From NCBI RefSeq assembly GCF_057098645.1, contig NZ_CM169472.1: 64,000 nucleotides of DNA; one strand, written 5' to 3'. Position numbers: made by a program. Positions 30,001 through 33,000 of the stretch are shown here, in pieces; within the stretch, counting starts at the first letter, position 1; every line of letters begins with the position of its first letter.

Positions 30001-33000
30001 TTCTCCGCGGTCAGCGCAATGTTGCTGGCGAGTGCATCCAGTGCCGGACGGTGCGGGGAATCGATCTTCTCACCATTGGCATACACGTCGTCGCCAATGC
30101 GCAATACGCGCAGACCACCCAGGCGCACCAGCACATCACCTTGTTTCAGCGCATCGTAGATTTCATCTGGCTGATAAGGCGGCTCTGGCGGCGCGATATC
30201 CAGTTCATGACGTGACTGGGATATAAACTCCCCAAACCATTGCTTAAAGTGTTCCGGCTGGTTGATCAATTCGAGCATCATCTCACGCAGTTTATCCATC
30301 TCTTGCGGCAGAACATCCGCAGGATGAGCGCGAGGTGGAACATCAGGATCGCTGTAGTAGTTGCCGCCCAGTTCACGTTGCAGCACATAATCGGCAAATC
30401 CACTAATCAGTTCCCGCGTATTTGGCGCGCGAAAACCCACGGAATAGTTCATCGCATTTTCCAGCGCGTAGCCTTCATGCGGGAATCCTGGCGGAATATA
30501 AAGAATATCACCAGGCTCCAGCTCTTCATCGATGATGGCTTCGAACGGATCGACCTGTAACAGATCCGGATGTGGGCAGTGCTGTTTCATTTGCAGCTTT
30601 TCGCCCACTCGCCAGCGACGACGACCGGTACCCTGAATGATAAACACGTCGTACTGATCGAGATGCGGGCCGACGCCGCCGCCCGGTACAGAAAAAGAGA
30701 TCATCAGATCATCAATACGCCAGTCCGGTAGTTCACGGAACGGTCGCATCAGCGCGGCGGTCGGCTCATGCCAGTGGTTCACTGCCTGTACCAGTAATGA
30801 CCAGTTGGTTTCACCGAGATGATCGTAGCTTTCGAACGGACCGTGGCTGACCTGCCATTTTCCATCCTGGTGACTGACCAGTCGACTGTCGACTTCGCTT
30901 TCCATCGCCAGACCCGCCAACTCGTCTGGAGAGATCGGGTCAATAAAATTATTAAAGCCGCGTTTTAACACCACCGGGCGTTTCTGCCAGTGACGTTCAA
31001 GAAAATCGGGCCAGTTAAGAGTGAGTTGGTATTCCATGTTAAGCATCCACAGGCTGGTATCTGCAACCGATTATAACGGATGCTTAACGTAATGCGTGAA
31101 GTATGGACATATTTTATCAATTAGTGTTTTTTGCCGTTTCATAATGTTTCAGATTGTTCATTATGTTTTTGATTATAAACAGATTTGTGATTTTCCTTGT
31201 TCCAGCTTGTTTCACGTTGTAGCCCTTTGTGCAACGATCGGTGTAGTTAATGGTGTAGTTAATTGTGATGACCGGAATCAAAATTATGAGCAGAGCACTT
31301 AACAAACTGAGCGATACACAGCTGAGGAAAATCAACGGCACACCCGCCCAAAAAACAGCCTTTCTTAATGACGGTGGAAACCTGAGCGTCAGGCATTCAA
31401 CCAGTGGCCTTTTAACCTGGTATTTCACTTACAGGGCCGGAACGGGAAGGGGGGCACCACCGGAACGCATTAAGCTGGGAAATTATCCTGATCTGAGCCT
31501 GAAATCAGCCAGGGAAAAAGCCGCCCAGTGTCGCGCATGGCTGGCAGAGGGGAAAAATCCACGTCATGAGCTTAATTACACCGTACAGGAAGCGTTAAAG
31601 CCGGTAACGGTTGGCGATGCGCTCACCTACTGGCTTGAGTCGTACGCAAAGGAAAACCGCGTGGATTATGCCGCCCTGAAAAAGCGCCTTAATAATCACG
31701 TAATACAGCACATTGGTGCTATGCCGCTGGATAAATGCGAGCTACGGCACTGGCTGGCCTGTTTTGACCAGGTGGCAAAGCGAACGCCTGTTACTGCCGG
31801 ATTCTTGCTACAGACGTGCAAACAGGCGCTTAAGTTCTGCCGGAGGCGGCGCTATGCAATCAGCAACGTTCTTGATGATATGAGTGTGGCGGACGTTGGG
31901 AAAAAACCGGATATAAGCGAGCGTGTCTTAAGCACCAAAGAACTGGGCGAATTATTGCAGGCACTGGACAAAAAAATATTCTCCCCCTACTACATCGCGT
32001 TAATCCGCCTCCTGATTGTGTTCGGATGCCGGACGGTAGAACTGAGGTTATCGGAGATCAGCGAGTGGGATTTTACCGAAATGCTCTGGACCGTGCCGAA
32101 AGAACACAGCAAAACGAAGGTGGCAATATTCCGGCCCATACCGGAAGCAATACTGCCGTTCGTCACGCAGCTGGTGGAGCAGAACAGGCACACGGGTTTA
32201 TTGCTGGGGGAAGTGAAACAGGAAACAAGCGTGTCGCAGTACGGCAGATTAGCGCATAGGAGGCTAAATCACCCTCACTGGTCACTACATGACATCCGGC
32301 GCACCTTTACAACGATGCTGAACGATTTAGGCGTGGATCCTCACGTCGTGGAGCAGCTTACAGGCCACCAGATGCCAGGAATGCAGCGAGTTTATAATCA
32401 TTCCCGTTATCTGGATGCTAAACGCAATGCGCTGGATATGTGGACGGAGCGGTTAGGGATACTGGCGGGAACACATGAAAACGTAACCACGCTACCAGTA
32501 GCCAGAAGAAAATAATTTTTTTCGTGTTTTTTCAGCATGCGCATACTGGATATGCGAACAGATACAACGTGCAACAATGAGCAACAATGTGGAACAACCA
32601 CGAACAAGAGGCGAAAAAGCGTACGGATTTATAAGTAGCTGATTTTTAATGCGTTACTGGTTTTTTATACACTAGCGAATCACTCTTTAAAGAGCGAGAA
32701 AAAAGGCATGAAACAATATTTTATGCCTTTGTATTAACATGAATTTAAAAGATTTTATTCTTACTGTTTCATTTTCTGTAAATCATACATCCTCAGTATT
32801 TGCCATTCATCACTCTAGCGGGAACAATACGACACAATAAGACACCTGATGACTCTTTAAGAAACGAAAGGGGGCAATAGTGTTAAGCACTGATCGGTTT
32901 ATACGTGAAAAAGAATGCGAAAAACTAACCGGCCTTAGCCGTACGTGTCGCTACCGCCTGGAAAAGGCCGGACAATTCCCATCACGTCGTAAACTTGGCG

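Follow-up and report, generated by a model that had tools for sequence, protein, structure and literature searches.

Transcripts that start outside the insertion sequences IS10 and IS50 fold back over the ribosome site of the transposase gene. This "fold-back inhibition" of outside transcripts is reportedly described by Davis, Simons and Kleckner in 1985 and by Krebs, Schulz and Reznikoff between 1986 and 1991. A perfect 11-bp inverted repeat next to roxA, in the window analyzed here (the whole 64-kb stretch of DNA), has the same architecture: its 5' arm (-26 to -16) lies upstream of the transcription start site (TSS) of the gene and its 3' arm (+15 to +25) covers the ribosome-binding site and reaches the AUG, so that transcripts started upstream, and they alone, could fold and hide that site. 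Unlike the two insertion sequences, the locus encodes no transposase, roxA being a housekeeping chromosomal gene, the pairing is unconserved in close relatives, and the hiding of the ribosome site is here a prediction from folding.

Published data on the locus itself concern its transcription start and its use as an integration site. In a TSS map of Escherichia coli K-12, the ycfD/b1128 TSS lies at NC_000913.2 1187488 on the minus strand, with 108 reads and a 25-nt 5' UTR (Kim et al. 2012, PMC3415461, supplementary file 2); that study gives the TSS only and does not mention the inverted repeat. The roxA-phoQ site is an integration site for an element of ~10.4 kb in O157:H7 (PMC8190617), and the gene order of the capsid-forming PICI-like satellites (cf-PICIs) is given in a description of that family (bioRxiv 10.1101/2022.09.08.507074).

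Our results indicate that the inverted repeat is real and native, is part of the ordinary E. coli chromosome, and does not mark a junction; the region that it occupies is the roxA promoter and leader, already mapped and already known. We consider it highly probable that the repeat belongs to the native E. coli DNA of the 75-bp phoQ-roxA intergenic region, that its arms, complementary to each other, are two working signals for roxA expression, and that it has nothing to do with the neighboring satellite.

The repeat within the roxA promoter and leader

The two arms, GTTAAGCATCC (31038-31048) and GGATGCTTAAC (31078-31088), are 11 nt each, 100% complementary, and separated by a spacer of 29 nt, in exact agreement with an earlier note on this DNA that had reported an 11-bp perfect inverted repeat with a 29-bp gap. 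A single repeat of this kind is not improbable by itself, because 0.65 perfect 11-bp inverted repeats with a spacer of ≤50 nt are expected per 64 kb of first-order Markov sequence, 46% of simulated windows contained at least one, and the real 64-kb window contains seven; its mere presence is within chance expectation.

The repeat is shared across the species. A 451-bp query spanning the region matched 5425 of the 5426 complete E. coli genomes; the match runs on into an integrase in 599 of them, and in the island-free records listed it ends at query position 265 (window position 31114), with roxA and phoQ annotated beneath it. Of 5427 E. coli records, 5423 show ≥99% identity over the 100 bp at 31015-31114, and the sole difference in the three one-mismatch records that were read was a single nucleotide polymorphism (SNP) at 31107, outside the repeat. 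Island-free BL21, in which phoQ is adjacent and the phoQ-roxA intergenic region of the empty site measures 75 bp, is base-for-base identical to the window over 31020-31114 and diverges from 31115 onward, and the repeat and its 29-bp spacer are likewise unchanged in K-12-type strains and in other genomes that lack the island and have phoQ next to roxA. The suggestion in the earlier note that the repeat may be a native element is borne out by this identity in BL21, in K-12-type strains, and in essentially all of the 5425 genomes. The coordinates of the features discussed here are collected in Table 1.

Table 1. Features at the roxA end of the satellite island, in window coordinates.
Feature	Position	Strand	Description and basis
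roxA (ycfD) CDS	29916..31037	-	Gene for the arginine hydroxylase of ribosomal protein L16; identical DNA so annotated in RefSeq, and PDB matches
Proximal arm, leader side	31038..31048	-	Reads GGAUGCUUAAC; roxA mRNA +15 to +25; Shine-Dalgarno-like GGA and spacer ending at the AUG
Inner 5-bp helix	31052..31068	-	GGUUG (31068-31064) with CAGCC (31056-31052); predicted in the loop when one RNA has both arms
roxA TSS (an A)	31062	-	K-12 TSS map; leader of 25 nt
roxA -10 box TATAAT	31070..31075	-	Inside the "loop" of the repeat; cross-species alignment
Distal arm, promoter side	31078..31088	-	Minus strand reads GTTAAGCATCC; roxA promoter -26 to -16, within the spacer that separates the -10 box from the weak -35 region; identical in island-free BL21
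att core GGACATATTT, 10 bp	31105..31114		Chromosomal side of attL; last two bases lie in the phoQ stop codon in empty sites
Capsid-forming PICI-like satellite island	31115..45478	+	Pfam and annotation of related islands; context to the repeat, no part of it

The repeat was said in the earlier note to overlap the roxA translation start, a description that holds for an upstream in-frame ATG at 31046-31044 only. The longest mechanical minus-strand open reading frame, 29916-31046, begins at that codon, and the accepted start is the second ATG of the frame, 31037-31035 on the minus strand, per RefSeq; the arm at 31038-31048 abuts this codon without overlapping it. PDB entries 4ccl, 4lit and 4nub match the roxA product at E values of about 1e-263, their chains begin with MEYQ, and the crystallized protein of 373 amino acids agrees with a start at 31037. 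In a cross-species alignment of 38 Enterobacteriaceae species, ATGGA(A/T)TA at the roxA start was common to all 38 and the upstream ATG was absent from every one. The annotation, the crystal constructs and the alignment together rule out the ATG at 31046 as the true roxA start. The feature that the repeat truly straddles is the roxA transcription start at 31062.

We transferred the K-12 TSS to window position 31062 by way of the roxA start at 31037. The upstream sequence printed for the ycfD TSS ends in ...GTTAAGCATCCGTTATAATCGGTTGCA / ...CACGCATTACGTTAAGCATCCGTTATAATCGGTTGCA (PMC3415461), and its 51 nt, which include the distal arm, the TATAAT and the TSS, are identical to the window except for the SNP at 31107, making the locus in the window the same promoter and leader as that of K-12 roxA (ycfD, b1128). 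The TSS sits 7 nt 3' of the TATAAT, within the 6-9 nt that characterize a sigma-70-type promoter, and the hexamer at 31075-31070 is conserved across the 38 species: no variation occurs at its first four bases (TATA) or at its last T, and its fifth base is at least 90% conserved. A CAG 7-9 nt 3' of the TATAAT and a GGA about 10 nt 5' of the ATG are also conserved. A -35 element close to TTGACA was not found at 16-18 bp; the hexamer at 17 bp, CACGCA, is conserved across species and far from the consensus. A scan for consensus promoters and terminators called nothing at the repeat and missed the roxA promoter, which was recognized solely by cross-species conservation and the published TSS.

The minus-strand layout, the promoter and the 25-nt leader are shown by the TSS data, conservation and sequence. 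A sigma-70-type promoter transcribes roxA with this leader, in the order of distal arm (-26 to -16), GT, TATAAT, 7 nt, the TSS A at 31062, 13 nt, proximal arm (+15 to +25) and the AUG at 31037. With a leader of 25 nt, roxA's own mRNA has the proximal arm alone and therefore no arm-arm hairpin is possible on it. Literature searches combining ycfD or roxA with phoQ, phoP or TSS yielded nothing on roxA regulation and no regulator, and a function for the complementarity of the arms is assigned neither in PMC3415461 nor in the other papers found. The word "regulatory" in the earlier note is apt insofar as the alignment and the TSS identify the arms as parts of the roxA promoter spacer and of its ribosome-binding region; a regulatory role of the pairing itself is putative, and the pairing is poorly conserved.

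Predicted folding and conservation of the pairing

Folded as one RNA, the region is predicted to form an 11-bp stem together with the inner 5-bp helix at -19.7 kcal/mol (z = -2.55; 2 of 200 shuffles were as stable). On RNA initiated upstream, modeled from the window and from BL21 with 150 nt of phoQ, the predicted probability that GGAUGCUUAAC is unpaired was about 0.00; on native mRNA with the 25-nt leader the same stretch was predicted to be partly open. A hairpin that buries the ribosome site could, by these predictions, form solely on RNA reading in from upstream. Since GGAUGCUUAAC is predicted to be almost never unpaired on such RNA and the consensus scan found no terminator-like site between phoQ and roxA, a read-through RNA, if it exists, would have the roxA ribosome site hidden. 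An Rfam 15 scan of 30800-31400 with E values up to 10 matched no family; its only two hits, both at chance level and below the gathering score, reached 13.7 and 15.2 bits where the cut-offs are 45 and 42.

We examined conservation of the pairing in the 38-species alignment and in 80 roxA loci from 80 Enterobacteriaceae species, all 80 of which had phoQ directly upstream. The phoQ-roxA intergenic regions differ widely across species, with the TATAAT (nearly) invariant. Uncompensated changes interrupt the stem in E. albertii (a central C.C mismatch), in Escherichia sp. E1V33 (four changes) and in Salmonella (a C.A mismatch); Citrobacter species retain 7-9 bp of it, and C. sedlakii has one compensatory pair. 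The outer stem pairs are unpaired in about 40-60% of sequences. Across the 38-species alignment, 59.2% of cells are paired versus 55.6% in shuffles (reached by 1 of 500), 45 cells are changed on both sides versus 35 in shuffles (3 of 500), and the covariation score is 0.157 versus 0.138 in shuffles, a value reached by 39 of 500; for the inner helix, 58% of alignment cells pair across species. Many clades have a recurring core complementarity of 4-6 bp, (A/T)TCCG with CGGA(T/A), and one core pair switches between clades from A:U to U:A (AU in 13 sequences, UA in 7). For 24 of the 80 sequences, the value predicted for occlusion of the ribosome site on upstream-initiated RNA lay under that of every one of the 30 shuffles; among these 24 are E. 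coli, most Buttiauxella, the three Atlantibacter, and some Citrobacter, Klebsiella and Salmonella. Within the same set, predicted occlusion was absent in Enterobacter, Lelliottia, Raoultella and Escherichia sp. E1V33. Enterobacter and Lelliottia have a different repeat of 9-11 bp, CGCAGGCTCTT / AAGAGCCTGCG, around the same -10 box.

The pairing as a whole is not conserved, and its distribution across these sequences argues against strong selection for the stem. The perfect 11-bp match appears to be an E. coli-specific extension of the short, widely recurring (A/T)TCCG / CGGA(T/A) complementarity. On balance we favor, with some reserve, the reading that the 11-bp match has no selected function of its own and is an incidental complementarity between two independently constrained signals. 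The z score of the hairpin, the recurring core, the pairing slightly above the level of shuffles, the occlusion predicted in 24 of 80 sequences, the Enterobacter and Lelliottia repeat, and the combination of a poor -35 with a promoter that was not called leave room for a selected function.

The strongest rival to incidental complementarity, which we regard as a tentative possibility, is that the repeat acts as a read-through insulator. The phoPQ operon has no intrinsic terminator before roxA, so some of its transcripts would run across the roxA promoter; such RNAs alone would have both arms, fold into a stem of 11-13 bp, and bury the region from the Shine-Dalgarno sequence to the AUG. roxA would then be translated from RNA made at its own promoter alone, and the untranslated roxA RNA could be ended by Rho. 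In the case of this window, RNA from upstream would need to exit the left end of the island instead of phoQ. Several of the observations above favor such a role, namely the position of the arms on either side of the mapped TSS, the identity of the proximal arm as Shine-Dalgarno sequence and spacer, the near-zero openness of GGAUGCUUAAC on modeled read-through RNA compared with its partly open state on native mRNA, the hairpin z of -2.55, the lack of a terminator-like site from phoQ to roxA, and the 24 of 80 sequences, E. coli among them, in which occlusion lay under each of the 30 shuffles. However, uncompensated changes break the stem in close relatives (E. albertii, Escherichia sp. E1V33 and Salmonella), occlusion is not predicted for Enterobacter, Lelliottia, Raoultella or E1V33, and the covariation is weak, its score of 0.157 against 0.138 being reached by 39 of 500 shuffles. 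The supplementary tables consulted from SMRT-Cappable-seq, an eLife Term-seq study and ROSE listed no phoPQ 3' ends or roxA transcripts. A broader form of the proposal, in which a promoter-straddling translational insulator of a housekeeping gene, an IS10-type "fold-back" in a core locus, would have arisen repeatedly in enterobacterial clades with different sequences, strikes us as somewhat more doubtful still.

Far less probable is a role as an intrinsic terminator or 3'-end-stabilizing hairpin of the phoPQ operon. The predicted hairpin would be the first stable structure 3' of the phoQ stop in empty sites, but the stem is followed by AUGGAAUACC and not by a U-tract, its loop is 29 nt, G-C pairs make up just 5 of its 11 bp, the scan did not call it, and it coincides in part with an active promoter and ribosome site. 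With no T-run following on either strand and a loop of 29 nt, we rejected it as the phoPQ intrinsic terminator. Slightly more improbable again is a DNA operator, on which a dimeric or looping regulator would occupy two 11-bp half-sites, 40 bp apart center to center and flanking the -10 box and TSS, and would repress roxA. The arms do flank the core promoter, and the block TCCGTTATAATCC is conserved beyond the need of a bare -10 box; against this, the half-sites are unconserved outside E. coli, a simple dimer operator would not typically have a 29-bp spacing, and the literature searches gave no roxA regulator.

The satellite junction and the hybrid island

The earlier note had placed the repeat at the left junction of the satellite and had suggested that it might mark where the chromosome and the integrative element meet, neither of which holds. 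The satellite junction is at 31114/31115, 26 bp to the right of the repeat, and homology to island-free genomes extends through those 26 bp past the right arm to position 31114, leaving the repeat wholly chromosomal and the duplicated core GGACATATTT 17 bp from its nearer arm. Comparison with satellite-free roxA upstream regions, where phoQ is adjacent, finds the repeat present there, and its proposed junction role fails. The earlier observation is partly confirmed, and the interpretation offered with it is, as a whole, partly supported.

The boundaries of the attachment site were read from E. coli O145 strain RM9872, which has an island between roxA and phoQ, with attL reading ...TATGGACATATTT / TATCAATTAG and attR reading ...AAAGGACATATTT / ATTCATCTTTC. 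GGACATATTT recurs at attR beside the phoQ stop in this strain, and because attL and attR both carry these 10 bp we assign them (31105-31114 in the window) as the core; the empty site of BL21 reads ...GGACATATTTATTCATC. The island recombined 17-26 bp further upstream of roxA than the repeat, at GGACATATTT on the phoQ stop codon, and the entire intergenic region stayed intact. The repeat is here 17 bp from the att core of an island like those of the cf-PICI family (bioRxiv 10.1101/2022.09.08.507074), at the integration site reported in O157:H7 (PMC8190617). Compared with the attL of integrative phage satellites, the repeat lies on the chromosomal side, is unchanged in empty sites and is unduplicated at the other end, and it is a neighbor of the att site rather than a part of it.

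Inverted repeats are typical of the sites of core-type recombinases. This general resemblance and the presence of the repeat within 26 bp of the junction are what speaks for reading it as part of the satellite attachment site, a junction marker or a core-type integrase binding site, which we nevertheless hold to be the least probable alternative of all and reject as an att or junction element by the empty-site comparison: empty sites are identical over 31020-31114, so the insertion neither created nor altered the feature, the arms do not recur at attR in O145 RM9872, and it is GGACATATTT that is duplicated. The likely arm-type sites are other 12-mers, GGTGTAGTYAWT, which lie within the island (31240-31263 and 45374-45397), and islands of this family also use a second, unrelated site at tqsA, whose core is ATAACAGCA.

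The island itself has int, alpA and a RepA-like helicase gene along with genes for capsid, protease, portal, HNH, TerS and TerL, and its Pfam hits were Int, AlpA, capsid, S78 protease, portal, HNH, Terminase_4 and TerL. int and alpA come first, followed by the capsid, protease, portal and connector genes and last by HNH, TerS and TerL, and tail genes are absent; this gene set and order are those of a cf-PICI.

Several observations concern the composition of the island. phoQ is absent from the 64-kb window. The left end of the island (int, alpA) is 97.9% identical to the roxA/phoQ-type island of RM9872 and only 90.3% identical to a tqsA-type island, whereas the part of the island from 37821 onward has 98.4% identity to the tqsA-type island that strain MBT-5 carries. 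The end of the island is the tqsA-type core ATAACAGCA at 45470-45478 (a tqsA-type attR), 3' of which lie a 5' fragment of tqsA, mdtJI, ydgD, asr and ynfM. Strain H19 has both island types, inverted relative to each other and separated by about 0.86 Mb, and none of the 5426 complete E. coli genomes has the same island joint as the window.

This arrangement points to a hybrid island joined to the tqsA locus, and, since a roxA/phoQ-type left end is joined to a tqsA-type attR, to a large inversion of the chromosome between two satellites resident in it. If two such islands underwent homologous recombination, the segment between them would be inverted and exactly this joint would result, although the hybrid joint may instead be a misassembly. 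The inversion would leave the island with att cores that do not match, so that it is probably unable to excise.

Implications for roxA expression and the satellite

The comparison removes a false lead, in that the repeat is uninformative on how or where the satellite integrates, and it fixes the true junction at 31114/31115, with the core GGACATATTT on the phoQ stop codon. Insertion there keeps the roxA promoter, leader and start intact and severs roxA from any phoPQ read-through. The hybrid island is a more interesting by-product of the analysis than the repeat itself. If the pairing does insulate roxA from read-through, RoxA synthesis would depend on which promoter made the transcript, and in carriers of the island the entering RNA would come from the left end of the satellite. 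The untranslated RNA may then pass to Rho, and the hairpin would effectively end the phoPQ operon. The locus would in that event offer a small, tidy case of transcript-origin-dependent translation in a core gene.

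Conserved sequence and repeats at the roxA promoter

Aligned roxA upstream regions from 38 Enterobacteriaceae species retain a block on the minus strand, (A/T)TCCGTTATAATC(C/G)G (31067–31080), that extends well past the TATAAT hexamer; this might point to an operator that has escaped recognition, or to a roxA promoter with unusual requirements. In this region the window carries an 11-bp inverted repeat (31038–31048 and 31078–31088) flanking the −10 box. The Enterobacter/Lelliottia clade (L027–L037, L066 and related loci) has a different inverted repeat, CGCAGGCTCTT / AAGAGCCTGCG, which flanks the same conserved −10 box on both sides and reaches up to 11 Watson–Crick pairs in locus L029; its downstream arm is constant, while its upstream arm differs between species. 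In the E. coli strain LP5-1 (L087), an IS5-like element, ISKpn26, splits roxA and phoQ apart. Its insertion point, equivalent to window position 31087/31088, is at the outer edge of the distal arm (31078–31088) of the E. coli repeat, in the interval that separates the −35 region of the roxA promoter from its −10 box.

At the other end of the gene, a hairpin located between the stop codons of the convergent pepT and roxA genes is followed by CTTTTCG on the minus strand. We consider this hairpin probably to be the roxA terminator, and it is possibly bidirectional.

Features listed by position in the window
Feature	Position	Sequence or structure
pepT–roxA hairpin	29876–29900	GGATGCGGCAT-GTG-ATGCCGCATCC; perfect 11-bp stem, 3-nt loop
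Left pair of 12-bp direct repeats	31240–31263	GGTGTAGTTAAT, twice
Right pair of 12-bp direct repeats	45374–45397	GGTGTAGTCACT, then GGTGTAGTCATT
tqsA-type attR core	45470–45478	ATAACAGCA

Variation in the att core and repeats within the island ends

Across 31015–31114, DH5a, H7 and TB06053, the three one-mismatch records that were read, differ from the window only by an A/G SNP at 31107. This position falls within the att core of the roxA|phoQ site, which reads GGACATATTT in the window, in island-free BL21 and in O145 RM9872, which bears an island between roxA and phoQ, and GGGCATATTT in the three variant strains; the SNP might alter how the site is used for integration.

Just within each end of the island, a capsid-forming PICI-like (cf-PICI) satellite at 31115–45478, lies a tandem pair of a 12-bp direct repeat (four matches observed versus 0.63 expected). 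The island integrase has an Arm-DNA-bind_3 domain, and the repeats are probably arm-type integrase binding sites.

A hybrid satellite and its chromosomal flanks

Left of the roxA region, comparison with O145 RM9872 showed that 12172–27000 carries the terminal part of a lambdoid prophage whose insertion site is potC/potB. This segment contains nleL, espN and espK, which encode type III effectors, together with IS remnants, and the source is therefore an EHEC- or EPEC-like E. coli.

The satellite combines an attL and int/alpA of the roxA|phoQ type with a morphogenesis module and attR of the tqsA type. To its right, as far as about 50000, lie tqsA′, then mdtJI, ydgD, asr and ynfM; phoQ was not found anywhere within the window, and the hybrid island joint occurred in none of the complete E. 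coli genomes searched. This arrangement fits a large chromosomal inversion in which two resident cf-PICI-like islands, lying in inverted orientation, recombined with each other; the att cores at the two ends of the island would then be mismatched.
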